Below, in pieces: positions 9,910 to 49,704 of a stretch of 64,000 bases of DNA. The stretch comes from a virus. The notes beneath the pieces were generated by a model. That model made no database searches. It saw nothing but the letters and a program-made list of their open reading frames with translations, and had not been told where the DNA came from. Positions within the stretch are counted from its first letter, which is position 1, and each line of letters opens with the position of its first letter. The DNA lies in IMG/VR virus record IMGVR_UViG_3300044734_000006, positions 1-64,000 of that record; one strand, given 5' to 3'. The position numbers and the translations under genes were made by a program.

Positions 9910-10284
9910 TCAGTGGGCTCCACAGTGGTCGATGGCGAAGGAACGTACGTCGGCGCTCTGCTCGGTGGGGCTGATCGACCCGGCTGCTGAGCAGATGTTA
10001 TTCCGAAGCGAGTTGGCGTGGGTCGTGTCACCGCTCGTCGCGGCGGTGTCATAGTCGGGGATCAGGCTCTCGGCCCGTCCGTTGGCGCCTTGGATGAAGT
10101 CGATGCTATGGCGCACGTTCTGTCCGTGCTGTGTGATCGCCGGCCCCTCCACGAAGCGCAGGTAGGCAAGATATCCGACCCACGAGAGGGCGACGATCAG
10201 CGCCACCACGAAGAGGCCGCGCAGCAGGACGTTAGCACCGATGCGGTCGGGGTTGTCGCTCTCGGTCCAGTGGGTACGGGTCAT
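9910..10284 (-). CDS. Single-pass membrane protein
   Basis: Hydrophobic stretch LLRGLFVVALIVALSWVGYLAYL; abuts both neighbours. Confidence 0.75.
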   Translation of the reverse strand: MTRTHWTESDNPDRIGANVLLRGLFVVALIVALSWVGYLAYLRFVEGPAITQHGQNVRHSIDFIQGANGRAESLIPDYDTAATSGDTTHANSLRNNICSAAGSISPTEQSADVRSFAIDHCGAH

Positions 10285-12062
10285 GGATGACGTTCTCCTG
10301 TGTGTGGTTGCGGGGCCATGGTCTCGCTCTCGAACAGATCAGCGAACACCTCGGGCACGCCAGCGTCGTCGACGATTGGCGCCTGCTCATGGATCTGGTC
10401 GAGCCCGTACGGCACCGTGAGCTTGCCCCACATCTCGAACGGACGAGTGTCGCCATGGTAGACCGTCTTGGCCAGCGTGATCCGCTCGCTCATGCTGATC
10501 AGGACCTTGCCCTCTGCGATGTTGGTGATCTCGTGCTGCGGCCAGCGCCATTCATCATGCGGCGTGACGGTGCGGGTGACCGTTTTGGTCCTCCGCTGCT
10601 CCTTGTTCCTGGCGTGACGCTCATGGCTGGACGGGTCGTCCTCTGTCGGCGACTGCTGGCGCCACCACGGGCTGTGGGTGCGTGCGGTGGCCTTGGTCGT
10701 CCGGTGGATGGTGTGCTTGCCGCCGGTCCGCTCAAGGCTGGCGAGCAGCTCGGGATCCTTGCACCCGCGTAGCACAGCGGTGACCGCCATGCCCTCGCGG
10801 ACCACCCTCTCGGTCTCCGCGTTCCACCGCAGGCTGAACTGTCCCATGGCCTGCACGGAGGCCATGAGCACGACCCCGCGTCCTCCCCCGTCGCCGATGA
10901 TCCGCGTGAGAGACGGCAGGGGGCTGAGCGTCGCCATCTCGTCCAGAGCGAGCAGGAACGGCCGCTCCAATGGCTGCCCACCCCGGCCGTCCGAGATGGC
11001 ATAGGCGGCCTCGGTGATCTCCTCGATTAGCCCGGTGGTCAGCGGCGCCAGGTCGCAGTTCGGGTCCGAGGGGGCGACGACGAACAGCACATGATCGCGG
11101 CCCAACTGCGGTCGGACGCTCGGGTCATGCTCGTCGTATCCGAGGAACTCGTACGGGTCGAAGCCGCACTCGCCGGCAAGGTTGGCATCCGCCAAGACCC
11201 GCGGGTTGTCGAACGCCGAGATGGCCGCGTCGAGGCAGGACCATACAGACCCCACCTCATCGCTCTCGCGAACCTTGGGATCGCGCAGGGTAAGGCTGGC
11301 CAGGTTCTCCAGCGCCTGTCGGTCTGGGCAGAGGTGCGGGTTCCCTTCCCACCGCGCGATCCGGTTTTTGAGGATGTCTGCGGGCTCGTCCACGTTGTGC
11401 TGCTTCACCCACGACCGGACGTGCCCCATGCCCTTGCCGTCCAGCGCAGCGGCGTACAGGAGAGGCGCGAGATACTGCGTGGCCCGCGTCTGCCAGTGGC
11501 TCGGATCCTTGGCCCCCTTGCCGGCGTTTACCCCCATGGCCCGTGCGCGCTTGGTGGCCGTGTAGAAATCCTCGCAGCCTCGCAGCGGAGACCAGTGCAG
11601 GCGTCGCACCCACGGCGGGACGTCGTCGGCTCCGAGGATCTGCATGGGGTCGAACACCCACACCTCACCACGGTAGGCGCGGACCGCCTTGCAGTGCTCA
11701 AGGATGTCCGGCTTGGTGCTCGTGGCGATGACCGGTCCCAGCCACGCCTGTACGTTGGGGATGATCAGCGTGGCGGTCTTGCCTCGCTGCGAGATGGCGA
11801 CGATCAGGACGTGCTCTCGCGGAGGAGCCTGCACAAACCTGCCCTTGTCCCAGCCGAGGATTGGCCGCCCGGGGATGATGCCGTACCAGATCGGGTCAAC
11901 GGGATCCACGCAGTGTAGCCGGGGCGGACGGAGGCGATGACCGTCGCGGAACACTGGGAAGGCGTGGTACTGAGCGAGGAGGCGCGGACCGTAGCGCATC
12001 TTGCCGTGCCAGCCAAGGCCACTCATCCCGGCGAGAGCGGCGACGATCTCGGGGAGGATCAC
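10281..12062 (-). CDS. virD4: Type IV secretion coupling protein (VirD4/TraG/TraD family)
   Basis: HVLIVAISQRGKT..IIPN...GPVIATSTKPD, VWVFDP, WSPLRGC, W..RA..YLAPLLYAAAL, LLALDEMATL.PLPSL....GGGRGV...VQ..GQ...W. Confidence 0.88.
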   Translation of the reverse strand: MILPEIVAALAGMSGLGWHGKMRYGPRLLAQYHAFPVFRDGHRLRPPRLHCVDPVDPIWYGIIPGRPILGWDKGRFVQAPPREHVLIVAISQRGKTATLIIPNVQAWLGPVIATSTKPDILEHCKAVRAYRGEVWVFDPMQILGADDVPPWVRRLHWSPLRGCEDFYTATKRARAMGVNAGKGAKDPSHWQTRATQYLAPLLYAAALDGKGMGHVRSWVKQHNVDEPADILKNRIARWEGNPHLCPDRQALENLASLTLRDPKVRESDEVGSVWSCLDAAISAFDNPRVLADANLAGECGFDPYEFLGYDEHDPSVRPQLGRDHVLFVVAPSDPNCDLAPLTTGLIEEITEAAYAISDGRGGQPLERPFLLALDEMATLSPLPSLTRIIGDGGGRGVVLMASVQAMGQFSLRWNAETERVVREGMAVTAVLRGCKDPELLASLERTGGKHTIHRTTKATARTHSPWWRQQSPTEDDPSSHERHARNKEQRRTKTVTRTVTPHDEWRWPQHEITNIAEGKVLISMSERITLAKTVYHGDTRPFEMWGKLTVPYGLDQIHEQAPIVDDAGVPEVFADLFESETMAPQPHTGERHP

Positions 12063-12812: not shown

Positions 12813-13499
12813 TCACGTCCGACCCTGCCCGCGGCGCTGGTAGTCCTGCCAATCCTTCACCTTAGCCTTCGCCATGATGCGCTCACCACGGCGGTTGAAC
12901 AGGTCGACAGTGGGACGTCCGACGACCCCCTCGATTCGGGCGTCTGGCCACTTCGAGATCAGAACGCCAGCGGTGATCAGGCCCCATGCCTCATCCAGAC
13001 TTCCAGTGAACTGCCAAGGGACCGTGTCAAGACCTAGTGCCGACGCCACGCTGGAGACGTTGTCCCCTGTGAGCCACCAGCGCCCAACCAGTACATCGAA
13101 CACGATGACGGTCTGGTCCTGGCGATACATGCCTCCCTTCTGGATCTTGGCCCCGTACCCCTCGCCGTACACCGTGACGTCGTCAGCCTCCGGGAAAACC
13201 TCTCGCCACCGCTCCGGCAGCAGCAAGGGATCAAGGTTGCGGAGCAGTGGCGCGGGCACCTGCGCCTCGTCGGTTCGACCACCAACCGTCACCGTCTCTC
13301 CGTTCCAGTGGAGACGGATATTGGTTCCGTCGATCTTCTCGGTCCATCGCCACGGGGAATGAGCCAAGAACCCGAACTCGGGAACCGACCACTCGCCGGG
13401 GATGATGACATTGCGGTCGTCTCGCTGAAAGAGTGTCTGTATCTTTTGGTATGGAGGGCCGAACTTTGTGGTGTCCGGTGTCCGTACGTCAATGGTCAT
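12813..13499 (-). CDS. RNA ligase (Rnl2-like nucleotidyltransferase)
   Basis: Motif I TEKIDGTN, III VYGEGYG, IIIa FDV, IV IEGVV, V KAK. Confidence 0.9.
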   Translation of the reverse strand: MTIDVRTPDTTKFGPPYQKIQTLFQRDDRNVIIPGEWSVPEFGFLAHSPWRWTEKIDGTNIRLHWNGETVTVGGRTDEAQVPAPLLRNLDPLLLPERWREVFPEADDVTVYGEGYGAKIQKGGMYRQDQTVIVFDVLVGRWWLTGDNVSSVASALGLDTVPWQFTGSLDEAWGLITAGVLISKWPDARIEGVVGRPTVDLFNRRGERIMAKAKVKDWQDYQRRGQGRT

Positions 13500-13508
13500 G
13501 CGTGTCTC

Positions 13509-14474
13509 CTACAGTGACCGACCGAGTTGAGGTGCTGCATCTAATTCGGCCTCGTCGCGAATTGGCTCGGCTGGCGCAGAGGGTCCGCCGATCGCCTCTC
13601 GCATGACCGAGGCGGGCGCTCCGCACGCAGTGTCCTCGTCACCCATGCTCGTAACGGCGACGACCTTGCCATAGTCGGGTCCGGGCATCATCTGGAGCAT
13701 CGGCGATCCTGACCATCCGGGATCCACGGGTGTAGCGACCACGGTGCGGGTAAAGGCGTTGTCGTGGCACGCAGGCTGGTCGGTGCGCGTACCGAGTACG
13801 GTGGTCGGGATTACGCCTCGGTCTGAGACGATGGCAACTTGGTCACCGGCCACGGCATCACGAGATGCCAGTTCGAGCGCGTCATCCCCGTCCCCCTGCC
13901 TGCCGCTGACCACCGCGAAGTCATCATGGTAGTCATCGACCACCTTCCGATGCGCCCAGTCCCCATCGACAACGTGCTGCGCCGTTGCTCTGCCGGTGGT
14001 TCCATCGGGCATGCGCAGGTCCCACGCCGTCCCCTTCGGGTTGGACAGTCCGCGGGCTGCGTAGATCGTCCCCGTATGTGCCTCCGCGTTCCCGATCGGG
14101 TCGGCGGCGGCCACGCTGTCGTATCCGTGCCCAGCCGCGAAGGCGTCGTGCTCCGCTGCCTGCGGGGCCGCCAGCGCGGTGGTGGATTTGAGCGTGGTCT
14201 GGCCCATGTCGCGCTCGAGCGAACGGGAAGCGGACGCCGCAGGCTCCTCGGCCTGAACTGGCGCCGCTTCCCGCCGCGGTGCGGGTGCCGATGGTGGATC
14301 GAGGTGATGGATCGGCACCCTGCCCTCGCGGAGCACGGAAACCGCTCGGAACGCACCGCTGTCGACGTGACGCTTCACTGTGCTGTCGAGGTGACGTGGG
14401 GCCACGCAGTGCCGGGACTGGCGACCGCTCTGGTCCTCCAGCACGACCATGGCGGGTTGCTGACGGCTGAACAT
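13509..14474 (-). CDS. Trypsin-like (S1) serine protease ending in -PQLGRSL
   Basis: Triad motifs TAQHVV, HDDFAVV, PGWSGSPM; no signal peptide. Confidence 0.82.
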   Translation of the reverse strand: MFSRQQPAMVVLEDQSGRQSRHCVAPRHLDSTVKRHVDSGAFRAVSVLREGRVPIHHLDPPSAPAPRREAAPVQAEEPAASASRSLERDMGQTTLKSTTALAAPQAAEHDAFAAGHGYDSVAAADPIGNAEAHTGTIYAARGLSNPKGTAWDLRMPDGTTGRATAQHVVDGDWAHRKVVDDYHDDFAVVSGRQGDGDDALELASRDAVAGDQVAIVSDRGVIPTTVLGTRTDQPACHDNAFTRTVVATPVDPGWSGSPMLQMMPGPDYGKVVAVTSMGDEDTACGAPASVMREAIGGPSAPAEPIRDEAELDAAPQLGRSL

Positions 14475-14479
14475 TGCTC

Positions 14480-17400
14480 CTATCCCATCCCGTGCGAGTT
14501 GCCGCCGATTTCGTGCGACGGCGTGGTGTCTGTCTCTGCCGCGGAGTGATCCGGGGCCAAGTCTCTCGTCTCGGCCGTCTCGCGCGCAGGCTCAGGCTCT
14601 GGCGTGTGGTCTGCTACGAGCTCCGTCTCTCTCTCGGGCTCAGCGTCGCGCTCAGGCTTCGCGTCCGCGCCCTCGCGGCTGGCTTCCGGCTCCGGGCGGG
14701 CTTCCTTTGCCTGCTCGCGGTCCTGCTCCTCATCAGCGTCAGGGCGCGACGGTCCATCAGTAGGGCGCTCGTCACCGGCGTTATCCGCGGGCTTGGGGCT
14801 CGGCTCGTGGTCCTGCGCCAGATCGCGTAGGCCATGCCGCTCCAGCACGTCGGGGTCATGGGGCGGGCGCTCTGCTAGCTGCGCGTCGTCGACGCTAGGC
14901 GGTGGCGGCAACTCTGCGTCTTCGGGTCGCGCAAGCCCACGTCTGTGCTCTGGCGCTACGTCGTCCTGCTCTGCTGCGCGGCCCCGTCCGTACACGGGCT
15001 CAGGCAGATCGCGCTCGCCAGCCTGACGCAGGCCCCGCTCGTGCTCTGGCGGTGCGGTGCGTGGACCCTGCCCGCCCAACCTCGCCCACGCCTCGTCAAG
15101 GTTGCGCTCGAACGTCTCGCGGTCCACCGGTAGGCCACGCTCTCGTGCCTCCGCTGCGACCCGTGCCTGTGTGGCGTAGGCGTCGTTCCACCCAGACGGT
15201 GCGGTCGTGCTGACGGGCTCGGCATTCCTTTCCGTGCCCTCGCGCAGCCACGACGTGTCGGTGAGCGGGTTGGGGGAGCTCTGTCGCGGGGCACCCGTGC
15301 TGGCCTGCTGCTCCCACATCGGCGCTGCGTCACGGAGGCGTCCAGACTGCTCACGGCCGACCGGGACCGTCTGCATCTCCCGTAGTGCCGATGCCTCAGT
15401 GATCTGCTGGAGTAGGTCGGGCTCCTGCGAACCAGCCTCGAGCCGCGCACGCTCTGCGGTCGGCAGGCCAGCGTGACCGTTCCCTACCGCTCCCGCCATG
15501 TCCACGATCTCTGCGGTGACGGGCCGGCCGTCCACGCGCGTCACCACGGGCTGCGGTGCATGCTCCGGTGTGGCTGCGATTCCACGGCGCTCCGCGTTGG
15601 CTGCGAACCCGTCGAACCCGTCCCGGCCTACGGCGTCGTGCGCTGGAGTATCCAGCGGCAAGGTGCGGACGTCGGCGACAGGCTGGCTCTCAGGGGTGGC
15701 GACGCGGTCCTGTGTGTGTGCCTGATCGGCGGCAGCCATCCGTGCTGCGCGCTCCTCGCGCTCCGCCGGGGTATGGAGTTCGTCGCGCAGATTCGGCACG
15801 ACCTCGCCGTTCGCCCTACGTATGTCGTTCTCGGTGGTGCCTGGTGGCAGGCCGTTCAGGTCGTCAACCATCCACGCGTCGTTGATTGGGTCAGACCGAC
15901 GCTGCTCGTCCATCCGCTGAGCGAACCGCTCCAACCGGTCGTTGCGGCCCACGTCTGGATCCACCACCGCGATCTGCTCGGCGCTGTGGAGTTCTCTGCG
16001 GAGGCTCCTGTTGACGCCGTTTCCCAGCGCAAGGTCGACATCGGAGTGGGACAGATGCGTGCCGAAGTCACTCTCTCGGTCGATGTCTGAGTAGTCACGC
16101 CGCCGTGCCGCTCCACTGTGCTGGATTACGGTTAGTCCTTCCGCCTCAGCCGCCTCACGGATGCGCTGTGCGGTATCTGGGGTGGCGAATCCTTCCACTG
16201 CCGCGTTCTGGTGAAAGATCGCTCCGGTCGCGCCCACGCTGTTCGCGATGCCTGGCTGCGATCCGTGGGTCACGAATCCGGCCTGGTTCATCCTGACGAG
16301 CGGATCATTGATCAGGGCTGTCTCTGGGTCCGGGTCGGGATGGCCGTTCGGATGTGCGAGATTGCCGGGCAGGAATTGCTCCGCAGTCACCTTGCCAAGG
16401 TGGTTGGTCGTCGTGGCATCGCCCCAGTCGCGGATGACGCGCTGCTCGCGAGCGGGCCTTTCCGCAGCCAACACGTCCGGTACCGACTCCTTCACCAACC
16501 CATGCTGCTTGGCGAGAACGGACGCGGCCGTGCCCTCTTCGTGGCCGTTGATCCTGTCGACTTGCCGTAGTTCCTCAAGCGAAGGCACTCCAACGACCTT
16601 GCCGTCCTTGTCGAGTGCGAGCGTGGAGGTGTTCGTCTCAACCCCACCGCGGAGGAATAGCGAGTTTTCTGCCGCCCTAGCCGCGCGCTGAGCACGCGGA
16701 GAGGCGACGGACTGCGACACGGCGGCTGCGTTGGCCACGGCCTCCTCGCGCTGTATGCCGTCGAGGGACCGTATTCCTCGCTGAACACGCTGCTCCTGAG
16801 CAGGTGTCAGGGTGACAACTCCGGCAGTGTTGCGCTGCGGTGTCCGTGGCTTCCGTCCGCCGACCACGGGCACGCTGGAGCCGAGGGCGTCCGCGATGCT
16901 CGCCACGGAGGGGATGCGGCGTGGCTTGCTGGTAGGGCTCTGTGTGCTGCGGCCGCTGCTCCCGCCTCCTCCCCCGCCGTTTCGCGCTGCGCTGGCCGGT
17001 GGCGTGGCTGCGGTCCTGCTGCGTGCGTCCGGCTTGGGCGGTTGCTTCTCGCCGCATGCGCTGACTACCTTGCCGCCGATGCCGGCGACGAACGACCCGC
17101 CGCCACCCTCGCCGACTTCCAACTCGAACAGATCGCGGACTTGACCCGTCTTCTCTCCACGCTGGTTGCGCAGCCACGAGTGGTTGCCACCACCGCCATG
17201 TCCGCCATCCAGCCGTGCGGCTTGGTACTTGGGCCGGAACGGAGACCAGACGGGGGTGATGTCCGTGCGCTCGCCAAGGGTCTCTGCGACGAGCCGTGCC
17301 CCCGTCACCAAGAACGGTGAAGCGGTCGGCAGCGGCCTCCAGTCCGGGCCGTAGTAGCCCTTCAGCAGCGCACGACGGTGGTCCTCATCCATTCCCAGCG

Positions 17401-18727
17401 CCCATGGCGGGACCGTCTTGGTGTGCGGCTTGTCGCCGAAGTGCTCCGCAAGCCACTTCGCCTGAGCCTGATCGCGCCCCTCGAACGTGACGCCGCCGCC
17501 CTTATCCTCGCGTCCCGTCCAGCCCGTGAGATGCTGGCGGATGGCTTGTGCCTCTCGCCGATCGGTGGCCTTGATCGTGATGCGGTCACCGTTTATGGTT
17601 CCGCTGCGCAGGTAGTTACCGACGAGATGCCACTCCTCGGGCGAATCCGGCGCGCCTGCGGGGATCGGAAGCGGATCGAAGTGCGTCGGCGTGGCCCACT
17701 CGTGGATCTTCGGGTTGAGCAGTCTCGGCGCCACCCATGCCGGCGATCCGTCCTTCTGACGCACCAACACGGGGTGACTGTCCGATGCCTCGATCGGTGG
17801 ATGACCGTCGCCCGAGATGCGCGCAGTCGGTCCCTTGTGCCTGTGTGACTTGGTGACCTTAGCCCACCGGCCGTTGTGGTCGACGACTTGGTCACCCTGG
17901 CGCACGTCCTCGATGAACACGATCCCGCGATCGGTCACCACGGGCGTTCCCTTGGGGAACCCCTCGGGCTTGCGCTTTCCGGGGTTAGGGATGTGTGTGG
18001 TGGCGGGGGCGGCGTTGGATTGGGTTGGCACAGACGTACCTTCATGAGCGATGGCGCTTTGCTCTTGCAGTCCGCGCCTTTGGGCTTCGTCGTAATGGCG
18101 TCTCTTCAGTTTCTCGGCTCGGTGGTATGCCTTCCAGCCAGTGCGCTGAGCGCGTTTGTCATCACTGTGTGCTCCAGCCCACCACTCATTTTTGAGGCGA
18201 ATGATCTCGGCCTGAGTTGCGGCGTCGGGAGGTGGTAGCAACTCCTCGCGGTGCTCGTCCTCTAGTTCGTCAATCTGGCGCTGGAACTTCCGGTCGGCTG
18301 CATGCTTGTGGGCCAGCGCCATGGCAACGTCGCGGTCGCCATCGATGACGGCCCAGTAGAAGCGCATTTCGGGTGGAGCAGATGGTCCACGCCAAGGGTC
18401 TTCGCCACGCTGGACGGCGGCGGCGATGTCCTGTACCGCGGGGTGATCCGTTACGGCGTCCACAAGCTCGTGCGTCCACACTGCGCCCTCGTTGTCACTG
18501 AGTTCGAACCCTTGCTGTACACGCTCCCACGCATCGGGTTTGGGCGATGGAGCCTGAGCGTGGACGTCCTTGGCGTCCGTCCGGGCGTCCTCGGAACCCT
18601 CGCCGAACAGAGAGTCGACATAACGTGCATTACGCGCAGCCGCGAGTAGACGATCAACTCGCTGTTCAAGGCGCCGACGCTCGGCAACTTGCTCGAACAG
18701 TTCGTCGCTACCGCTATGGCTGGCCAT
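14480..18727 (-). CDS. 1415-aa multidomain protein: degenerate intein (Hint + LAGLIDADG), DUF6919-like domain, long disordered acidic tail
   Basis: GFPKGTPVVTDRG..IEDV..GD.V, SDSHPVLV, LLKGYYG, LFELEV...SFVAG..VVSAC; ETALINDPLVRMNQAGFVTHGSQPG...QNAAVEGF. Confidence 0.85.
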   Translation of the reverse strand: MASHSGSDELFEQVAERRRLEQRVDRLLAAARNARYVDSLFGEGSEDARTDAKDVHAQAPSPKPDAWERVQQGFELSDNEGAVWTHELVDAVTDHPAVQDIAAAVQRGEDPWRGPSAPPEMRFYWAVIDGDRDVAMALAHKHAADRKFQRQIDELEDEHREELLPPPDAATQAEIIRLKNEWWAGAHSDDKRAQRTGWKAYHRAEKLKRRHYDEAQRRGLQEQSAIAHEGTSVPTQSNAAPATTHIPNPGKRKPEGFPKGTPVVTDRGIVFIEDVRQGDQVVDHNGRWAKVTKSHRHKGPTARISGDGHPPIEASDSHPVLVRQKDGSPAWVAPRLLNPKIHEWATPTHFDPLPIPAGAPDSPEEWHLVGNYLRSGTINGDRITIKATDRREAQAIRQHLTGWTGREDKGGGVTFEGRDQAQAKWLAEHFGDKPHTKTVPPWALGMDEDHRRALLKGYYGPDWRPLPTASPFLVTGARLVAETLGERTDITPVWSPFRPKYQAARLDGGHGGGGNHSWLRNQRGEKTGQVRDLFELEVGEGGGGSFVAGIGGKVVSACGEKQPPKPDARSRTAATPPASAARNGGGGGGSSGRSTQSPTSKPRRIPSVASIADALGSSVPVVGGRKPRTPQRNTAGVVTLTPAQEQRVQRGIRSLDGIQREEAVANAAAVSQSVASPRAQRAARAAENSLFLRGGVETNTSTLALDKDGKVVGVPSLEELRQVDRINGHEEGTAASVLAKQHGLVKESVPDVLAAERPAREQRVIRDWGDATTTNHLGKVTAEQFLPGNLAHPNGHPDPDPETALINDPLVRMNQAGFVTHGSQPGIANSVGATGAIFHQNAAVEGFATPDTAQRIREAAEAEGLTVIQHSGAARRRDYSDIDRESDFGTHLSHSDVDLALGNGVNRSLRRELHSAEQIAVVDPDVGRNDRLERFAQRMDEQRRSDPINDAWMVDDLNGLPPGTTENDIRRANGEVVPNLRDELHTPAEREERAARMAAADQAHTQDRVATPESQPVADVRTLPLDTPAHDAVGRDGFDGFAANAERRGIAATPEHAPQPVVTRVDGRPVTAEIVDMAGAVGNGHAGLPTAERARLEAGSQEPDLLQQITEASALREMQTVPVGREQSGRLRDAAPMWEQQASTGAPRQSSPNPLTDTSWLREGTERNAEPVSTTAPSGWNDAYATQARVAAEARERGLPVDRETFERNLDEAWARLGGQGPRTAPPEHERGLRQAGERDLPEPVYGRGRAAEQDDVAPEHRRGLARPEDAELPPPPSVDDAQLAERPPHDPDVLERHGLRDLAQDHEPSPKPADNAGDERPTDGPSRPDADEEQDREQAKEARPEPEASREGADAKPERDAEPERETELVADHTPEPEPARETAETRDLAPDHSAAETDTTPSHEIGGNSHGMG
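17057..17962 (-). mobile_element. Intein-derived region (302 aa) lacking Cys1 and terminal His-Asn
   Basis: Blocks A, B, C, E, F, G recognisable; first residue Gly, last residues Ser-Ala, +1 Cys kept. Confidence 0.8.
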
Positions 18728-18739
18728 CTAAGTCCCCTG

Positions 18740-18847
18740 TCAGTGGTGGTGATGCAGGGGGATGACGCCGGTCACCAGACCGGAGAGGATCAGTGTCACC
18801 ACCAGCATGAGCATGGGGTGTTTGCCGAACGCGATACCAAAGAGCAC
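18740..18847 (-). CDS. 35-aa membrane peptide
   Basis: GGGAG RBS, GTG; MLFGIAFGKHPMLMLVVTLILSGLVTGVIPLHHHH (below the ORF-track cutoff). Confidence 0.55.
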   Translation of the reverse strand: MLFGIAFGKHPMLMLVVTLILSGLVTGVIPLHHHH

Positions 18848-18859
18848 CCGAGTTCTCCC

Positions 18860-19039
18860 TTAGTAGTGGCCGTGGAGCCCAAATGTGTAGACGCCATACA
18901 CGCCGAACATGATGAACATGGCGCTGATCACGACGGTCGGGATGACCTTCTGGCGGATCCCCTCCCTCATCGTGCCGAACCACCACCATGCGATGTAGGC
19001 ACCCATGACCGCGAAGACGAGGTCTGGTACGCGTTCCAC
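18860..19039 (-). CDS. 59-aa two-TM membrane protein
   Basis: GGAGG RBS, GTG; MERVPDLVFAVMGAYIAWWWFG...VVISAMFIMFGVYGVYTFGLHGHY. Confidence 0.65.
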   Translation of the reverse strand: MERVPDLVFAVMGAYIAWWWFGTMREGIRQKVIPTVVISAMFIMFGVYGVYTFGLHGHY

Positions 19040-19107
19040 CTAGACCCCTCCGCACCCACGGACGATGTAGAAGACAATCGCGAGCGGCGCACCGATCCGG
19101 GCACAGC

Positions 19108-19314
19108 TCACAGCGGGTAGATCCCGTGCGCGAAGTGGAACACGGTGACCACGAGGAAGGCGGCCACCAAGGCATGCCACCAACTCGCTCGCCTCATGGC
19201 CTCGAAGATCCCCCACACCACGCAGAGGTTGGCGAGCCAGATGTAGGAGAGGAAGACGGAACCGAAGGCCACACCGGGCTGAGCGACTGCGGCGAGGAGG
19301 AGGGTACTGGTCAT
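19108..19314 (-). CDS. 68-aa membrane protein
   Basis: ATGA overlap; two hydrophobic segments. Confidence 0.65.
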   Translation of the reverse strand: MTSTLLLAAVAQPGVAFGSVFLSYIWLANLCVVWGIFEAMRRASWWHALVAAFLVVTVFHFAHGIYPL

Positions 19315-19568
19315 GGCGTGGTCTCCCCGTCAAATACCGCGTCCATGATCCTCACCACGTTGCGCGGTCGGTACTTGCCGTCAGATGGGCGCGGCAGATA
19401 GGCGTACTGATGGCGCCAGCGGCCATGCACGGCGACCTGTCTCCACTCGCCGAGCCGTGGATGGCAGTTCCCGGGCCGTCGCCACGTTCTGACTCGGGCG
19501 CAGTCGCTCACCTCGTAGTCGGGAGCCCACGGGATCGGTAGCCAGCGCTCCTCGGTCTCGTCGGTCAT
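19311..19568 (-). CDS. NUMOD4 domain protein
   Basis: ERWLPIPWAPDYEVSDCARVRT. Confidence 0.75.
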   Translation of the reverse strand: MTDETEERWLPIPWAPDYEVSDCARVRTWRRPGNCHPRLGEWRQVAVHGRWRHQYAYLPRPSDGKYRPRNVVRIMDAVFDGETTP

Positions 19569-19975
19569 CGCCGAGCCATGAGCAGTGCGGCGATCAGCAG
19601 GCACCCGTGGTGGAGAGCCTGATCAGCTTGGTATGGACCGTTCACCGGGGTGGACATCTCTGCGAATCCCGCCGAGCCCGTGTGTCGCAGCAGCCAGCGC
19701 ACCGACCATCTCCGGTCGATGAACGCGTGCGTGGCGCTCGAGAACATCATGCCGACCAGCAGAGCCCGCAGGTTGCAGCGCATCCCCGTGGCTGCGAGCA
19801 CCGCACCGACCGCCACCGCCTGCGTGGCCTGATAGCCAGCAACGTGCCCGGCCATGGCGCGCCAACTCTGCGCCTTGCGCACGGCTTGATGGTCGGTCTG
19901 AACGAGGTGGTCACCCACGTTGTGCGCGGCCCATAGCGTGGGGAGCAGCGCGGCGAACCTCAGCGCATCAGTCAT
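19565..19975 (-). CDS. DUF3307 membrane protein
   Basis: AHNVGDHLVQTD..A..K, THAFID, DQALH. Confidence 0.8.
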   Translation of the reverse strand: MTDALRFAALLPTLWAAHNVGDHLVQTDHQAVRKAQSWRAMAGHVAGYQATQAVAVGAVLAATGMRCNLRALLVGMMFSSATHAFIDRRWSVRWLLRHTGSAGFAEMSTPVNGPYQADQALHHGCLLIAALLMARR

Positions 19976-20331
19976 CGCTCGCTGCCATACTTACGAATGG
20001 GGCGCGTTCGGTTGACCCTTCGTGGAACGTACTCACCGAGCCGGTTGCGTACCCAGCCCGTGGCGCTGACACCAGTAACCTCGGAGGACTGCTGCATGAG
20101 GTCGACGAGTACGGAGCGGTCGGTACCACGCATTTCATGCACGGTGTTCGCATACCTGCCCTGCCGTTGCCAGAGCTTCCATCCGATCTGATGCATCCCC
20201 TTGCCGAGGCTCGCGAACTTCAACATAGGGCTGATCGCCCAGCCGTCCTCGCCGATCTGATCCCATGTGCTGATGATGGTCTCGTCTGCGGGCGATGCGT
20301 TCATCGTGGATCCTCCGCCCTCGGCAGTCAT
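19972..20331 (-). CDS. Hypothetical protein
   Basis: ATGA overlap, operon context. Confidence 0.55.
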   Translation of the reverse strand: MTAEGGGSTMNASPADETIISTWDQIGEDGWAISPMLKFASLGKGMHQIGWKLWQRQGRYANTVHEMRGTDRSVLVDLMQQSSEVTGVSATGWVRNRLGEYVPRRVNRTRPIRKYGSER

Positions 20332-20535
20332 CTACTCATCCCCGAAGCGGTGGGCCCGGCGGCCAAGTGCAGATCTGAGTAACGCCGCCGGGCCACCGCC
20401 ATGAGAGAACGCGCGGGAGAGGGTTGCACTGCTGGTGCGCCTACGGGGAGGGAGTTGTGTCGCGCGTCCATGTTGGAGGTAGTCTAGCACGACGGCGGTC
20501 CGATGGCGTGCCATTCCCATGATACGATGGAGGGC

Positions 20536-21426
20536 GTGATCGAAGTTAGCAAGACGTGGTCACTTGTGCCATGCAAGTTTCGTCCTGGAGTTTCAAGGGA
20601 GCGAGGAGTCCACGCCCAGGAGGCGCGGGCTGGCAAGTATCGCGGCGCCCATGTCTGGGCTTGGATGGATGCCAACGGCGGTGTGCCGCCTCCTAAGGGC
20701 ATGTGCGTGTGCCATCACTGCGATGTTCCGCCCTGCATAGAAGCTGAGCACCTGTTCCTCGGTACATACGCTGACAACACCCATGATGCGCAGGCCAAGG
20801 GGCGGATGCCTATCCGCGCACCGCGCCACGTAGCGCGTCGTGCTGGAACACAAACCTATGTTCGGAGTATCGCGATGCTACGATCGCCCACCGACCCGCC
20901 ACTCGACCACCAAGAGAGCGCCGATGAGCCCGTTCGACGTGATCCAGCCGATCTCGCAGACGTGAGCCCTCCAACCGACCCGCACCAGCCCAGAGCGCGT
21001 AGTGTCCACTGGCCTGACGAACTTCACGTCTATGTTGCGGCCGTGGCTCGGGAGGGTGAGGTCCAGGGGTACACGCGGGCCGAGTTCAACATCTCCACCG
21101 TGGCGCGTGAGGCCCTGCATCGTCTCCGTGATCGCCTAGAGGAACCCGCCACAGCAGCCGCTGCCATCATCCGAAGCTGGCGAAAGGATGACGATGGTAC
21201 GGCGCCGCCCCCGTCCAAGGCTCGCAGTGTGTGGTGGGACGACGAGCAGCACGGGTGGCTCGAGGACGTCGTCCGCGAAGGGAAGCGTGCCGGCAGCAAG
21301 GCGTTCAACATCAGCGTGGTGGTCCGCGAGGCGCTGTACCGGTTCCGTGCCCGCTACCCGGAGCCTGCCAAGGCCGCCGAGGCGATCATCCGGGGCTGGG
21401 AGCGAGAGGCGAAGCGCGAAGGCTAG
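20536..21426 (+). CDS. HNH endonuclease fused in frame to two tandem ribbon-helix-helix-like repeats (internal start at 20875)
   Basis: AHVWAW...VCHHCDVPPCIEAEHLFLGTYADN; repeats ARSVHWPDELH..FNISTVAREALHR / ARSVWWDDEQH..FNISVVVREALYR. Confidence 0.75.
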   Translation: MIEVSKTWSLVPCKFRPGVSRERGVHAQEARAGKYRGAHVWAWMDANGGVPPPKGMCVCHHCDVPPCIEAEHLFLGTYADNTHDAQAKGRMPIRAPRHVARRAGTQTYVRSIAMLRSPTDPPLDHQESADEPVRRDPADLADVSPPTDPHQPRARSVHWPDELHVYVAAVAREGEVQGYTRAEFNISTVAREALHRLRDRLEEPATAAAAIIRSWRKDDDGTAPPPSKARSVWWDDEQHGWLEDVVREGKRAGSKAFNISVVVREALYRFRARYPEPAKAAEAIIRGWEREAKREG

Positions 21427-30701: not shown

Positions 30702-32822
30702 CTATCCAGCCCTCCGCTGACCCTTCCAGTGCCTGATCAGGCGGCCCATCTCGGACTCGCTCACGTAGGCACCCTGCATCCGGCGCGTCTCTCCGTCGTC
30801 GTTCAACCGGCAGAGCATGTCTCCGCGGCCCGCCAGTTTCTCCGCTCCCATCTCGTCGAGAATGACGCGGGAGTTCACGCCGCTCGAGACGCGGAAGGCG
30901 ATGCGGCTCGGGAAGTTCGCTGTGATGTCCGCGGGGATGAGTTCCGCCGAGGGACGCTGGGTCGCTGCGACAAGGTGGATACCGGCCGCCCTGGCAAGCT
31001 GAGCCAGCCGCTGTAGCGCCTCCTCCACGTCATCCTTTGCCCGGAGCACAAGGTCGGCGAGCTCGTCGATCACCACCACGATCCGGGGCAGGGGCTCAGC
31101 CCTGGTGTTGTGCTGGGCGATGTTCTTCGACCCACTGCCGGCGAGGATTCGGTACCGCTTGTCCATCTCGTCGACCACCTCGCGGAGCGCCTCCACCGCC
31201 TCATCAGCGTCGTTGACGATCGGCCGCAGCAGATGAGGGATTCCAGCGTACCCTTCCAACTCGACCACCTTGGGGTCGATAAGCACGATCCGTAGTTGAT
31301 CCGGGGTGGCCTGCAACAGCAGCGAGGCGAGCAGGACGTTGATGTAGACGGACTTGCCGGAGTTCGTCGCGCCGCCGATCAGCAGGTGCGGGGTGGTCGT
31401 CAGGTCTCCGACCGCGGACTGCCCGGACAGGTCGGCGCCGAGTGCGATGGCCAGCCCGGTACGGGCCACGATGCGGAAGGCCGGGGCCTGCACGAGCGAC
31501 CGCAGGGTGACCAGCTGCGCCGCCTTGTTCGGCACCTCGATGCCCACGGCGGCCTTGCCGGGGATCGGCGCTTGGATGCGGATGGTCGCGGCAAGAGCGA
31601 GGGACAGGTCGGTCTGCCGCGTGGTGATGCGCCGGACCGACACGCCGGGGGCAGGCTGCAGGACGTACTGCGTGACCCGTGGGCTGGGGTTGACCTCGAT
31701 CACCTTCCCCATGACGCCGAAGGATTCCAGCGTGGATTCGATCAGCGAGCGGGTGTCGCGGATCTCCGCGTCCTGCCGAACGCGGTCGGTCTTGCCCTCG
31801 TCGAGTAGGTCGATGGGGGGCAGGAGCCACTCTGAGTGCCCCGTCTCCAAATCTGGCAAGACCATGAGCGCGGTCTGTCCGGAGTCGCCAGCTGGATACT
31901 GCCCGTCATCCGTGGCGGGTTTTGGAGACTCCGATGGGCGCGGAGGGTTCGCCATGGCCTCTCGCATCGGGCCGGCCAGCCACGGCACGCCCTGCCAGTT
32001 GCGTCCAGCCTGAGCGGGAGCGTGCGTCTCGTCCTCCGCAGGCTCCTCCGTGTCGCCGCTCTCCTCGCCACGGATCCATCCCCACAGTCGCTCAGACCGT
32101 AGCCCACGCCGCATCCCGTCGCGCATCGCACCGGCCACCACCGGCACATCAAGGTCCACGGCTAGCACCAGGCCGAGGCACGTCAGGCCGACGAACAGCA
32201 CCACCGACCACCACGGCCCGACCCAGCCAGCTGCCGAATCCGCCAGCGAACCTCCGACCGACCCTGCCCCGCCCCGCGTCCACGGCACCAACGCGGTCAG
32301 CCCGAGCAGCCCCGGGATAGCGATGCCCACCCCCGCAGCCGAGGCGTGACCGTGCCCCAGCAGCAACCGAACTCCGACCAGCAGCAGACCGGCCACGAGC
32401 AGAGCATCCCCGACCACCCCCAGCCAGTCCGTGAGCATCGAGCCCTGCGGGATGAGCAGGAGCGGGATGGAGAGCAGCGCCGCGATGAGCGCCCCGACGC
32501 CGTGCAGGTTGCGCCGCTGGTCGTGGGTGACCTTGGGCGCCTTGGCGGTACGCCTTGCCGGTCGTCTGGTCCGGGTCGCCATCACGCCTCCTGCGGGAAG
32601 GTCGGGGAACTTGCGGCCGTGCTCTTTCTCATGGCACGGACGGCAGAGCACCATGAGGTTCGCACGCCTGCAGTCGTTCGGTCTGCGGTTCTTGTGGTGA
32701 GCCTGTAGCGCCCGATCCGTCTTGCACCGCTTGCATCTCTGGCCTTGGCGAAACTCGCGGCTGAGCTCTTGCCAACAGGGCGGGTAGTCCGCTCCTGGGT
32801 AGACGCGGAACCGTGCAGCCAC
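30702..32822 (-). CDS. ftsK: FtsK/SpoIIIE DNA translocase (multi-TM + motor, no gamma domain) with in-frame N-terminal HNH; internal start at 32582
   Basis: IRIQAPIPGKAAVGIEVPN, PHLLIGGATNSGKS, LIDPK, VVIDELADL, ARAAGIHLVAATQRPS, GAEKLAGRGDML; HNH CKRC..AHH..N..NLMVLCRPCH. Confidence 0.93.
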   Translation of the reverse strand: MAARFRVYPGADYPPCWQELSREFRQGQRCKRCKTDRALQAHHKNRRPNDCRRANLMVLCRPCHEKEHGRKFPDLPAGGVMATRTRRPARRTAKAPKVTHDQRRNLHGVGALIAALLSIPLLLIPQGSMLTDWLGVVGDALLVAGLLLVGVRLLLGHGHASAAGVGIAIPGLLGLTALVPWTRGGAGSVGGSLADSAAGWVGPWWSVVLFVGLTCLGLVLAVDLDVPVVAGAMRDGMRRGLRSERLWGWIRGEESGDTEEPAEDETHAPAQAGRNWQGVPWLAGPMREAMANPPRPSESPKPATDDGQYPAGDSGQTALMVLPDLETGHSEWLLPPIDLLDEGKTDRVRQDAEIRDTRSLIESTLESFGVMGKVIEVNPSPRVTQYVLQPAPGVSVRRITTRQTDLSLALAATIRIQAPIPGKAAVGIEVPNKAAQLVTLRSLVQAPAFRIVARTGLAIALGADLSGQSAVGDLTTTPHLLIGGATNSGKSVYINVLLASLLLQATPDQLRIVLIDPKVVELEGYAGIPHLLRPIVNDADEAVEALREVVDEMDKRYRILAGSGSKNIAQHNTRAEPLPRIVVVIDELADLVLRAKDDVEEALQRLAQLARAAGIHLVAATQRPSAELIPADITANFPSRIAFRVSSGVNSRVILDEMGAEKLAGRGDMLCRLNDDGETRRMQGAYVSESEMGRLIRHWKGQRRAG

Positions 32823-43364: not shown

Positions 43365-45257
43365 GTGGCGACGCTCCTCGGGCCTGACGGTCGGGCGTTC
43401 CCCAGGACCACACGCGCCGAGTTCGCCGCGGCACAGTCCGCGCTGGCGGCCATGCCGGCAGAACTGCGACGTGCGGTGAACCTCGACGAACTCGGCGTCA
43501 GCGGTACGCAGATCATTGGCGGCTTGGTCTACGAGGAACGCGCCCCCGAACTCGCAGGCTCCAAGGGCATGGAAGTCTGGCGCGAGATGGGGCACGACGC
43601 CACCTTGGCGATGTGTGTGCGCGCCACCATCAACCCGCTGCGCAGTGCGGACTGGTTTATAGAACCTGCGAGCGAGGAACCCGATCACGTTGAGCAAGCC
43701 GACCTCGCGCACTGGTGCCTGTGGGAGTTCGGCACGATGTCATACGACGATCTGCTGCGCCAGCAGATGCGTGCCATGAAGCAGTACGGGGTTGGGGCCT
43801 CGGAGGTGTGCTATCGACCGATCCCATCCGGGGAGTTCGCTGGAAAGTGGGGGTGGGAGAAGCTCGCGTGGCGCAGTCCTCTGAGCCTGTATCGCTTCGA
43901 CGTCGAGCCAGTGCAGACCGAATATGGCGGTACTAGGCGCGAACTCGTGACGATCGTACAACGCGATCCTGCATCGGGGACGCTGTTCTACCTGCCGAAA
44001 GACAAGGTGCTGCTGTTCGTCAACGACCTCGAGGGCGAGAACTTCTTGGGGAGAAGCGCATTCCGCGAGTGCTACGAGGCATGGCGGTACAAGCGTGCCA
44101 TCGGTCGCCTGGAGGCCATTGCCCTCGAGCGTTGTGGCATGGGTCGCCTGAAGGCCACGCTCCCGCAGGACTACTCGGACGAGGAGCGCAAGATGGCTCG
44201 GCAGATCGTGGAGAACGACCGCATCCATGAGAACGCTGGCATCGTCACCACCGAGGCTGTACCGGTCGACGTGATCCACAACTCGCTGGAGGGCGCGGCC
44301 TTTCGTGCGGCATGGGAAGCCTACGATGCGGCGATGTGCTTTCCGTTCCTCGCCCAGTACCTGCTGCTGGGCCAGCGTGGCAACAGCGGCGCGTACTCGC
44401 TCTCCCAGGACCACTCGCAGATCCAACTCACGCAACTCAACGGCGACGCCAACCAGTTCGAGCAGGTGCTCAACCTCAGTCCGGGCATCCCGCTGCTCAT
44501 CTCCATCAACTACCCGAACGCGGACCCGAGCAAGATGCCGAAGTTGCAGCACGGGGACATCGGACGCAAGGACATGGAGCTGATGGGTAAGACCCTGCTC
44601 GCCTTGTCGCAGGGTGGGTGGGTCATGCCGACCGCGCAGGATGAGGACACGCTGCGCAAGTTCGTAGACCTCCCGGAGCGCGACCCGATGCTCGGCCCGG
44701 AAGCCTTGGTGCCGCTCATCCAGCAGGTGTTACCGCCGACGTGGTGGGGGACGCCGCATCAGGCTGGACAGGCGGTGAACCCTGCGGCCAAGGCTCTGGT
44801 CGGCTCTGGCGTGCCAGCGCCGCAGGGCCAGCAGGTTGCGGGGCAGTTCTCCGAGCGCGAGTGGGCCGCCATGGCTGAGCGCTCGGTGAGGGCGCGGATG
44901 CCATGGCGCCGCCCGCAGATTAAGGGTGGACGCGTCACCGCCGAGGATGCCGTGAGGGTGCGGATGGGAGAGTATCTGTTGGACTACTTCGAGCAGGCCG
45001 ACAAGCCACGCATGCAGAAGCCTGATCCGCCCAGCGTACGCCTTGCCAAGCGGCGTAAGCCATACCAGATCGCGCGCATGTCCTCCGATGCGGCCAAGGT
45101 TGTGGAGATCAACGCACGGGCCAAGGCGGGCGGTGGGAGTGCGAACGGTAAGCGCAAGGTGGTCGTGAGCCCAGCGGATATCGTTGCACGGCAGGGTCGT
45201 AGGTCGGTGCAGGACGTGCTTGCAGTGCTCGGTGCGAAGAACGGGAGCGTAAAGTGA
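43365..45257 (+). CDS. Portal protein (Mu gp29 / DUF935-like)
   Basis: ELGVSG, LPKDKVLLF...EGENFLGRSAFRECYEAWRYK, ERCGMG, LAQYLLLG...GAYSLS, LISINY. Confidence 0.88.
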   Translation: MATLLGPDGRAFPRTTRAEFAAAQSALAAMPAELRRAVNLDELGVSGTQIIGGLVYEERAPELAGSKGMEVWREMGHDATLAMCVRATINPLRSADWFIEPASEEPDHVEQADLAHWCLWEFGTMSYDDLLRQQMRAMKQYGVGASEVCYRPIPSGEFAGKWGWEKLAWRSPLSLYRFDVEPVQTEYGGTRRELVTIVQRDPASGTLFYLPKDKVLLFVNDLEGENFLGRSAFRECYEAWRYKRAIGRLEAIALERCGMGRLKATLPQDYSDEERKMARQIVENDRIHENAGIVTTEAVPVDVIHNSLEGAAFRAAWEAYDAAMCFPFLAQYLLLGQRGNSGAYSLSQDHSQIQLTQLNGDANQFEQVLNLSPGIPLLISINYPNADPSKMPKLQHGDIGRKDMELMGKTLLALSQGGWVMPTAQDEDTLRKFVDLPERDPMLGPEALVPLIQQVLPPTWWGTPHQAGQAVNPAAKALVGSGVPAPQGQQVAGQFSEREWAAMAERSVRARMPWRRPQIKGGRVTAEDAVRVRMGEYLLDYFEQADKPRMQKPDPPSVRLAKRRKPYQIARMSSDAAKVVEINARAKAGGGSANGKRKVVVSPADIVARQGRRSVQDVLAVLGAKNGSVK

Positions 45258-48387: not shown

Positions 48388-48620
48388 TGCATAGTGTCGC
48401 CAAGGACCGTATCGCCCTGAAGGTCTGCGCGATCGGCGCGTCACTGGGGGTAGTCGGTGGGGTAGCCACAACCATCCTTGGCATCCCGTGGTGTAATGGC
48501 GGCTCGGTCATCGGCGGCTTCATCGCTGGCGTCAGCTTGGGGCTGCTCAGCAGCCTCTTCTGGTGGCACACGGCGAACGATTACCGAGACATGTACGAAA
48601 AGGCTCGATCGCGGCGATAG
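48387..48620 (+). CDS. Two-TM membrane protein
   Basis: Two Gly-rich hydrophobic segments, basic C-terminus. Confidence 0.6.
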   Translation: MHSVAKDRIALKVCAIGASLGVVGGVATTILGIPWCNGGSVIGGFIAGVSLGLLSSLFWWHTANDYRDMYEKARSRR

Positions 48621-48621
48621 G

Positions 48622-49704
48622 GTGCGCGTCCGCTACTACCCCGCCTCCCGCTATGACGGCTGTGCGATGTACCGGCTCGTCTTCCCTGCGAACGTCCTTG
48701 CTGCGCAGGGGATGGACGTGGCTGAGGGCAGGCGGGAGGACATACAGGCCGTGTGGCGCCAGACGTCGGACGGGCCGCGGGTGGCATGGGCCGAGCCGCT
48801 CGACTGCGACGTGGCGGTCTTCCAGCGGGTGTGCAGGCGTGACATCGTGGACTGCATCCCGTCCTGGCAGCGGCAGGGCACGGCGGTGGTGATGGACGTG
48901 GACGATCTACTCTCGGCGGTCGACCCGGGGAACCCGGCGTTCGCGGCCTACCACCCGTCCAACCCTGCGGAGAACTGGCATCACCTCGAGCGGGCGTGCA
49001 GGATGGCCGACATGGTCACGGTGAGCACCCCGGCGCTGGCTGAGCGGTACGGGCGGCATGGGCGGTTCAGGGTACTGCGCAACTGCGTGCCAGAGTGGTA
49101 TCTTGGCGCGGATGGGGCATGCTCGATGGACGGAGGGTCGCAACCTCAAGTCGTCGCGGCCTCTGCCCCAGTCTTAGGCTGGGCTGGCAGGGTCGAAGTC
49201 CACGCTGCGGACCTCGCCGTGGTTGGGACGGCCGTCGCTCAGGCCATGCGTCAGACCGGTGCAACCTTCCGCGCGGTGGGGGATGAGGCCACCCTGACGG
49301 CGCTCGGGGTAGAGGGCGAGGTGGTGCCGTTCATGCCGTTCGCGGAGTACCCTGTGGAGGTGGCACGGTTGGACGTGGGGATCGCACCGCTGGCGTATAC
49401 GGCGTTCAACCGCGGGAAGTCTGCCCTCAAGCCGCTCGAGATGGCCGCGCTGGGGGTGGCGTTCGTCGCCTCGCCGCTGCCCGAGTACGCACGCCTTGCG
49501 GAGCTTGGTGCCGGCTACCTCGCATCCCGCCCACGCCACTGGCTGGCTGGCCTGCGTCGCCTGCTGACCGATGCGGAGTACCGTGCAGAGCGGGCAGGAC
49601 GGGGGCGCGAGGTGGCCGCTGGGCTCACGTATGAGGGCCACGCTGAAAATTGGGCGACAGCATGGGGCGAGGCGCTCAGGGTGCGGCGGGAGAATGCGGC
49701 GTGA
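48622..49704 (+). CDS. Glycosyltransferase (GT-B, family 4-like)
   Basis: GCAMYRL..P, VVMDVDDL, ADMVTVSTPALA, LGWAG, DVGIAPL..TAFNRGKSALKPLEMAALG. Confidence 0.9.
   Translation: MRVRYYPASRYDGCAMYRLVFPANVLAAQGMDVAEGRREDIQAVWRQTSDGPRVAWAEPLDCDVAVFQRVCRRDIVDCIPSWQRQGTAVVMDVDDLLSAVDPGNPAFAAYHPSNPAENWHHLERACRMADMVTVSTPALAERYGRHGRFRVLRNCVPEWYLGADGACSMDGGSQPQVVAASAPVLGWAGRVEVHAADLAVVGTAVAQAMRQTGATFRAVGDEATLTALGVEGEVVPFMPFAEYPVEVARLDVGIAPLAYTAFNRGKSALKPLEMAALGVAFVASPLPEYARLAELGAGYLASRPRHWLAGLRRLLTDAEYRAERAGRGREVAAGLTYEGHAENWATAWGEALRVRRENAA

Follow-up and report, generated by a model that had tools for sequence, protein, structure and literature searches.

An intein-derived module that has lost its splicing residues and is probably retained as a non-catalytic domain of a giant phage protein

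Can an intein that has lost the residues required for splicing persist as a working part of the protein that contains it? The question is raised by IMG/VR virus record IMGVR_UViG_3300044734_000006, a 79-kb viral contig with an estimated completeness of 72%, whose positions 1 to 64,000 constitute the window analyzed in this study. An open reading frame (ORF) on the minus strand of this 64,000-nucleotide window encodes a giant protein of 1415 amino acids (P0001), and a sequence-only reading had described a segment of it as a domesticated, splicing-dead intein. This segment (residues 256–557), referred to here as the module, is an intein-derived domain with a LAGLIDADG insert. Judged by its residues and surroundings, it is not an intein in the functional sense, as it lacks a nucleophile at position 1, a terminal Asn and an extein setting; judged by its conservation, it is maintained by selection. 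The interpretation that we favor, with a probability of about 0.6, is that the module is a selected, non-catalytic domain of the giant phage protein, a function that we infer from conservation. The parts of the gene are as follows.

14480..18727, minus strand: giant ORF P0001, 1415 amino acids, intact and carrying the intein-derived module (ORF translation; seven full-length homologues)
18032..18727, minus strand: N-terminal extension, residues 1–232, in frame and specific to the window (alignment A1)
17963..18031, minus strand: leader, residues 233–255, with a candidate internal start at Val233 (GTG; GAAGG upstream; starts of homologues)
17693..17962, minus strand: N-terminal Hint half, residues 256–345, with Gly256 in place of Cys1 and Ser315-x-x-His318 in block B
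17228..17692, minus strand: degenerate LAGLIDADG core, residues 346–500 (DSSP on the model; I-DmoI and WhiA matches; alignment)
17057..17227, minus strand: C-terminal Hint half, residues 501–557, with blocks F and G, in which Val-Val-Ser-Ala replaces Val-Val-His-Asn
17054..17056, minus strand: +1 residue, Cys558 (family alignment)
16808..17053, minus strand: basic linker rich in Gly, Pro, Ser and Arg, residues 559–640, predicted to be disordered (predicted local distance difference test, pLDDT, below 50 in a second model)
15932..16432, minus strand: DUF6919 domain, residues 766–932 (Pfam E 3.6e-21)
14483..15040, minus strand: acidic, Pro-rich, low-complexity C-terminal tail, residues 1230–1415

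The intein origin of the module is supported by both sequence and fold. A phmmer search with residues 240–580 against 1.84 billion representative proteins returned 1030 proteins at E≤1e-3, of which 347 reach E≤1e-10; almost all of them are canonical inteins. Among 127 relatives that were extracted, Cys1 is present in 124, a terminal Asn preceded by any residue in 124, a His-Asn end in 110 and a +1 Cys in 113. The C-terminal block of the family to which the module belongs gave almost no phmmer matches, and jackhmmer, started from the canonical intein on viral contig L003, supplied the C-terminal boundaries of the relatives. An AlphaFold2 model of residues 240–580, built from a 38-row alignment, is confident (pLDDT 91.7; predicted template modelling score 0.88), and its best Foldseek matches in the PDB are the TliVMA, PhoVMA, PI-SceI, PI-PkoII and PI-PfuI inteins (E 1e-15 to 1e-10); the core matches I-DmoI, I-Tsp061I, I-SceI and WhiA (8dy7_I). 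VIA-align superposes the model on the TliVMA intein over 298 residues (Z 26.4, root-mean-square deviation 3.5 Å) and on mini-inteins with Z of 15–18. In the alignments with PI-SceI, PI-PkoII and the RecA mini-intein, model residues 17..318 fall on chain residues 1 to last, which places Gly256 at position 1 and makes Ala557 the final residue of the intein. On a Hint fold, the four blocks A, B, F and G follow one another in order (model, VIA-align and block alignment), and two LAGLIDADG helices lie at the domain core (model residues 124–136 and 209–220). The complete intein architecture that had been read from the letters, 302 residues in an intact frame, is thus borne out by the predicted structure.

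General annotation gives little sign of this. In a Pfam scan of P0001 the module obtained only a sub-threshold Hint_2 match (residues 257–301, 18.1 bits, below the cut-off of 28.4); NCBIfam gave no match and PHROGs one weak match, leaving an annotation gap in which none of the three collections makes an above-threshold call on the module. A PDB sequence search gave only E-values of 0.3–1.5. Close relatives are few. Seven full-length homologues of 1133–1498 amino acids, 64–91% identical in the module region, form with the window protein a family of eight. A search for further loci with the single sequence found nothing in genome contigs or viral contigs, and a search with alignment A1 found nothing in metagenome or genome contigs and two loci in viral contigs. 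No shorter, stand-alone close relatives of the module were found at E≤1e-20.

Position 1 of the module is Gly in all eight family members, and the last two residues are Ser-Ala in all eight. The placement of these residues on exact codons (Gly256 at 17960–17962, Ser556-Ala557 at 17057–17062) upholds the earlier observation of a Gly at the start of block A and of VVSA at the end of block G. The homologue alignment that the sequence-only reading had called for shows both substitutions to be fixed in the family; with identical residues in eight homologues, sequencing error is ruled out as their source. That reading had also stated that the block B His and the +1 Cys remain. The His does so throughout, as part of a Ser-x-x-His that is invariant in 8/8 (SDSH, Ser315 to His318, 17774–17785), whereas the Cys is present in the window (Cys558, 17054–17056) but is not a family trait, with Cys in five members, Ala in two and Tyr in one. 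No Cys is invariant within the module, and six of the eight modules contain no Cys at all.

Class 1 protein splicing requires Cys1 or Ser1 together with a terminal Asn. Class 2 inteins (Ala1, KlbA-type) require the +1 Cys and the terminal Asn, and class 3 inteins (Trp-Cys-Thr) require a block F Cys at position 4. Because Gly1 cannot form an N-terminal (thio)ester, a final Ala cannot cyclize and no Cys is conserved, no known class of splicing is possible for the module; the class 2 and class 3 mechanisms are ruled out by the missing terminal Asn and conserved Cys. For the same reasons, and with Cys, Ala or Tyr as the +1 residue across the family, the suggested one-sided cleavage by way of this Cys is unlikely to occur. 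From these residues we infer that isolated N- or C-terminal cleavage, which depends on Cys1 or Asn, has no chemical basis either, and that the module is inert in splicing and cleavage alike. Instead of a conserved insertion site between two exteins that form one functional protein, the module has short or orphan sequence upstream and a low-complexity linker downstream, as had been noted when the flanks were described as low-complexity rather than a conserved extein enzyme.

The LAGLIDADG core is degenerate to a lesser extent than had been claimed. In motif 1 (LVGNYLRSG, 17600–17626) the catalytic Asp is replaced by Ser375, and Ser is found in the 7/7 members that retain the region, which is deleted in P0008. 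In motif 2 (LLKGYYGPDW, 17339–17368), an ungapped alignment to canonical relatives places Asp462 at the catalytic position, which is Asp or Glu in 7/8 members and Lys in P0008. The statement that both acidic residues had been lost is consequently right for motif 1 and wrong for motif 2, and the core falls short of one catalytic Asp or Glu per motif. The Gly that follows the catalytic acid is replaced by Trp in the window and by Trp or Arg in the family, and the Gly-Pro that precedes the acid ends the motif-2 helix three residues early in the AlphaFold2 model. The same model lacks a beta-hairpin between helices 209–220 and 232–244; its first half is complete, so that the alpha-beta-beta-alpha-beta-beta-alpha topology is present in only one of the two halves. 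The segment after motif 2 is 6–17 amino acids shorter than in relatives, and the module as a whole, at 302 residues, is about 50 residues shorter than their median of 353. With one of the two acids lost, along with one beta-hairpin from the saddle that would bind DNA, the core very probably no longer cuts DNA.

The retained acid and the invariant block B Ser-x-x-His are among the reasons to consider residual or novel catalysis, in the form of site-specific nicking by Asp462, an unknown type of Hint autoprocessing through His318, or cutting of the junctions in trans by a putative protease encoded next to the giant gene. We regard this as improbable. In LAGLIDADG enzymes such as PI-SceI (Asp218, Asp326), loss of either acid abolishes cleavage. 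Asp462 is moreover followed by Trp and is replaced by Lys in P0008, the motif-2 helix is cut three residues short in the model, and the module has neither a nucleophile at position 1 nor a terminal Asn. The contribution that neighboring genes could make is considered below with the gene context.

Although its chemistry has been lost, the module shows the strongest conservation within the protein, with a mean pairwise identity across the eight proteins of 0.70. By part, the LAGLIDADG core and the linker each reach 0.76, DUF6919 reaches 0.57, and the tail is lowest at about 0.50. One third of the module columns (101/302) are invariant, and no frameshifts or stops were found in the eight homologues. 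The ratio of nonsynonymous to synonymous substitution rates (dN/dS, Nei-Gojobori), computed between the window and the related viral contig L002, is 0.23 for the module at a dS of about 1; it is lowest in the core (0.145), 0.20 in the C-terminal Hint half and 0.40 in the N-terminal Hint half. Random decay with frameshifts, which had been named as the observation that would overturn the idea of domestication, is not seen: frames are open, dN/dS is low and conservation is the highest in the protein.

Along the giant gene as a whole (14480-17969 versus L002:10060-14521), dS forms a mosaic, being about 1 in the intein, 0.085 in residues 641–765 and 0.4–0.56 beyond. This tenfold variation points to a recombination mosaic and to recent exchange between related phages.

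The same data bear on whether the locus is real. The record is an incomplete metagenomic contig and the 232-residue N-terminal part of the ORF has no homologue, so it could be argued that the ORF is a pseudogene, an assembly chimera or an untranslated frame in which the substitutions are noise. This is very improbable. The same substitutions occur in eight independently assembled homologues that are 64–91% identical and have open frames of 1133–1498 amino acids; one of these homologues comes from a phage genome of 109.8 kb that is complete, bears terminal repeats and has a syntenic operon (L002); and GC content by codon position is coding-like.

The position of the module within the protein is informative in its own right. 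All seven full-length homologues start with Met-Pro 14–24 residues ahead of Gly1, and the 232-residue upstream extension is absent from 7/8 family members. The placement of the module inside a 1415-residue protein therefore holds for the ORF of the window and does not hold as a family trait, in which the module is N-terminal. No homologue of the extension was found among proteins of 127–406 amino acids; its GC content by codon position is coding-like, with GC at third positions below that found elsewhere in the gene. The window and L002 become similar at the DNA level from 17969 (codons of residues 253–254), the intein boundary, onward. Upstream of this point the window is longer than L002 by about 850 nucleotides, and in L002 the in-frame sequence further upstream is rich in Arg and Ser and non-coding in appearance. 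GAAGG lies 7 nucleotides ahead of the GTG codon of Val233, which, used as a start, yields Met-Pro-Thr-Gln, as in L002. Initiation at this codon could give an N-terminal form of the module in the window as well. A 165-residue fragment of the family (P0028) carries a different, Cys-rich extension (CxxC...CxxC) of about 65 residues in frame before the dead intein. The differing upstream pieces of the window and P0028 mark the N-terminal side of the module as a swap point that accepts varied fusions.

An N-terminal location also bears on a considerably less probable account than the one we favor, namely that the module is a frozen passenger: a functionless dead intein, kept because unfolding a 300-residue embedded domain would wreck the protein, with selection acting on foldability only. 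An inactive intein pseudogene with short exteins is known from an actinobacterium (Arth_1007; PMC3196547), and the loss of both the catalytic residues and the DNA-contact hairpin fits a passenger, as does the tolerance in P0008 of a further 40-residue core deletion. However, a downstream start codon could discard an N-terminal module harmlessly, and yet it has been kept in the seven members that have it at the N-terminus, which disfavors the passenger view. Its conservation also exceeds that of DUF6919, with the invariant columns counted above.

The interpretation of the module as a selected, non-catalytic domain has several observations to contend with. The dN/dS values come from a single DNA pair, and within that pair the values for the Hint halves (0.40 and 0.20) exceed that for the core. 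The folding of a large embedded domain could by itself account for the purifying selection. The second half of the core lacks its hairpin, and P0008 has lost about 40 residues of the first LAGLIDADG half; canonical recognition of a long DNA site, given this missing hairpin and the deletion, is doubtful. All these points weigh against the interpretation, and the hairpin and the deletion also weaken the case for DNA binding, which is nevertheless plausible: the module has an isoelectric point of 9–9.8, basic like its DNA-binding relatives. Within the non-catalytic interpretation, binding of nucleic acid appears somewhat more likely than binding of protein. The proposal that the intein had been repurposed as a DNA-binding or structural domain is accordingly supported in one part, as the module is both dead and kept (the defining residues in 8/8 members, and a low dN/dS), and its DNA-binding part is plausible.

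If the module is such a domain, it would be translated as a permanent part of the polypeptide that is unable to leave it. Without catalysis, the rigid, basic body formed by the Hint and LAGLIDADG parts would attach to nucleic acid or to a protein partner, and the flexible basic linker of about 80 residues would tether this body to the DUF6919 domain, which resembles a domain that binds S-adenosylmethionine (SAM), and to the acidic tail. The SAM-binding-like domain would then be the cargo of a binding or anchoring head.

The source of the module can be traced in its relatives. About half of them have Ser-Pro-Asp/Glu on the N-terminal side and Cys-Thr/Lys-His-Phe-Ser on the C-terminal side, and their hosts are C5 cytosine methylases (PF00145), in which the profile match is interrupted at position 71, within the motif that holds the catalytic Cys (motif IV). 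Many of these motif-IV methylase inteins lie in phages. The viral contig L003 encodes a clean, canonical example with both LAGLIDADG acids and a VVHN end followed by Cys, and further examples are found in the cultured Pseudomonas phage Lana, Propionibacterium phage B22 and Escherichia phage RCS47. A FastTree phylogeny built from 137 intein sequences recovers the dead family as a monophyletic group (support 100) on a long branch within a group dominated by methylase inteins. The sister position that the tree gives to P0096 unites long branches, and we place no weight on it. Pro-Glu precedes Gly1 in 7/8 members, paralleling the Ser-Pro-Glu ahead of Cys1 in methylase inteins; as a sign of ancestry, this likeness to the end of the methylase N-extein is suggestive only. 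The module thus descends from inteins with a LAGLIDADG domain that are inserted into C5 cytosine DNA methyltransferases at motif IV.

A methyltransferase remnant in the giant protein was considered and rejected, as it gives no PF00145 signal and the C5 methylase of the phage is a separate gene. This gene, located outside the window (G000:C1 ~69483-70136; L005:1093-1746, minus strand), encodes a 217-residue C5 cytosine methyltransferase-like protein whose motif IV is intact and without an intein (SPPCQGFS). It is the type of site into which the ancestors of the dead intein home.

Two free-standing relatives share the Gly1 of the family and, like it, lack the terminal Asn. P0050 (349 amino acids) is 30% identical over its full length, retains both LAGLIDADG acids and ends in VVH-Cys-stop; by its sequence, it may be a free-standing homing endonuclease resembling HO and WHO of budding yeasts. 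P0096 (333 amino acids) has degenerate motifs like those of the dead family. The two proteins hint at a route from an intein to a free-standing gene, followed by fusion and loss of the nuclease. The nearest ESM Atlas clusters comprise viral proteins of about 330 amino acids (204 and 57 members) that belong to no Pfam family, and are a lead only.

Beyond the linker, the recognizable part of the giant protein is DUF6919. The only significant Foldseek matches of this domain are to the SAM-binding regulatory domain of eukaryotic methylenetetrahydrofolate reductase (MTHFR), a resemblance that has been described previously (PMC11701544). Stand-alone DUF6919 genes are present in 48 actinomycete plasmid records, of which 46 are from Streptomyces, and a tblastn search against cultured phages with DUF6919 found no match. 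On Streptomyces albidoflavus plasmid NZ_CP109240.1, a DUF6919 gene (L004, 79088-79687) lies about 4.5 kb from a gene annotated as a terminase family protein, and this plasmid may be a phage-plasmid. Related giant proteins also carry additional pieces. A Trypsin_2 domain is present inside the P0004 homologue (residues 1177–1321), and P0008 contains an insertion of about 160 residues before DUF6919 (A1 columns 813–976) with a HELAH motif that Pfam does not recognize; from this motif, the insertion may be a zincin-like peptidase.

The giant gene is part of a leftward string that also contains a 321-residue ORF, an RNA ligase, a 166-residue ORF and a coupling ATPase of the VirD4/TraG type. The string is syntenic in L002. 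A scan of 13400-20600 for promoters and terminators found nothing exceeding shuffles. Two of the neighboring genes bear on the function of the module:

13509..14474, minus strand: downstream 321-residue ORF in the same operon, a possible protease (motif inspection only)
10281..12062, minus strand: coupling ATPase of the VirD4/TraG type, encoded in this leftward string (Pfam T4SS-DNA_transf E 4e-14; TraG-D_C E 8e-13)

The 321-residue ORF contains His/Asp/Ser-like motifs (AQHVV, DDFAVV and GWSGSP) and may, on this basis, encode a chymotrypsin-like serine protease; Pfam and PDB sequence searches returned no match that would assign it as a protease. Such an ORF directly after the giant gene, together with the Trypsin_2 domain fused in P0004, speaks for cutting of the module junctions in trans, and the lack of Pfam or PDB backing for the assignment counts against this variant. 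Nicking by the module, in turn, would find a context in an operon with a VirD4-type ATPase and, among the ORFs scanned, no recognized relaxase.

These neighbors allow a still more specific and slightly less probable proposal, which we put forward as speculation. The dead-intein head could be the recognition module of a relaxase-free phage system for transfer or ejection, in which it would bind a specific DNA site, and possibly nick it with the half active site that is left, or dock on the VirD4-type ATPase four genes downstream, with the giant protein acting as a pilot or adaptor that accompanies the phage DNA and delivers DUF6919 to the recipient cell. Were this the case, prokaryotes would have a first counterpart of the HO/WHO route, and coupling proteins would have a substrate adaptor of a new kind.

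Other genes of the record include a Mu-like portal (43365-45257), a match to a Mu-like protease/scaffold, DnaB and an FtsK/SpoIIIE protein. The coupling ATPase thus coexists with a protein of the FtsK/SpoIIIE family (30702-32822, minus strand) on a tailed-phage contig with a Mu-like portal. The late region of the phage also carries genes for a group-1 glycosyltransferase (48478-49704, plus strand) and an NAD-dependent epimerase/dehydratase (50941-52062, plus strand).

Among known systems, the motif-IV methylase inteins are the closest to the module. They are homologous over its whole length at 28–43% identity (single-domain E to ~1e-26), with the same block order and fold, the same WATP...PLP linker motif and Pro-Glu/Asp before position 1. 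They differ in their Cys1, their His-Asn end and +1 Cys, their two acids and the methylase exteins that flank them on either side; the dead family instead has Gly1, a Ser-Ala end, a +1 residue that varies, a single acid and no exteins of a methylase.

Two further groups share only one part of the module each. WhiA (DUF199), a bacterial transcription factor that arose from a LAGLIDADG endonuclease, is a precedent for reuse of the fold without catalysis after loss of the catalytic acids. It lacks a Hint domain, and its DNA binding relies mainly on an added helix-turn-helix, a domain not seen in the giant phage protein. The bacterial intein-like (BIL) domains and other stand-alone Hint domains share the Hint fold (Z 16.5 with a BIL domain of Clostridium thermocellum and 16.4 with BIL2 of Tetrahymena) and a variable multidomain setting. 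BIL domains keep the position 1 nucleophile, autoprocess and have no endonuclease insert, unlike the module with its Gly1 and LAGLIDADG insert.

A further case has an actinobacterial context. The intein Arsp-FB24 Arth_1007 is of phage origin, lacks catalytic residues, does not splice and has short, non-enzymatic exteins (PMC3196547). It is a single pseudogene locus, in contrast to the family described here, which is conserved under purifying selection and continues for about 850 further residues. The giant protein also recalls the polyvalent proteins known from phages and conjugative elements (PMC5512222) in its very large size, its multidomain make-up, its variable insertions (Trypsin_2 in P0004) and the presence of a coupling ATPase and an RNA ligase nearby. 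The hallmark domains of polyvalent proteins were, however, not found in P0001 with Pfam, NCBIfam or PHROGs, its only recognizable domains being DUF6919 and the dead intein, and the description of polyvalent proteins makes no mention of inteins (PMC5512222).

A precedent for the overall arrangement is HO/WHO of budding yeasts, in which an N-terminal, intein-like region without exteins or a C-terminal splicing motif is fused to C-terminal domains and does not splice (PMC7282813). The dead family shows this same pattern, being extein-less, devoid of a functional motif G and C-terminally fused. HO/WHO are, however, eukaryotic, with an active LAGLIDADG nuclease and a zinc finger, whereas the phage family has a degenerate nuclease followed by a linker, DUF6919 and an acidic tail, and the Pfam scan found no zinc-finger family in P0001. 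The descent is also separate, the dead family being nearest to prokaryotic and phage methylase inteins. Inteins are usually viewed as selfish elements that splice or decay, and clear cases of reuse are few, comprising HO/WHO in yeasts and, for the nuclease fold only, WhiA. The practical value of the module will be modest until its function is known, and knowledge of its binding target could open an unusual operon, with a VirD4-type ATPase and a SAM-binding-like domain, to experiment. A whole intein, with both its Hint and LAGLIDADG parts, kept in a giant protein common to 80–110-kb phages would constitute an exaptation of an intein in prokaryotic viruses, parallel in outline to HO/WHO and with a traceable ancestor in the motif-IV inteins of DNA methyltransferases.

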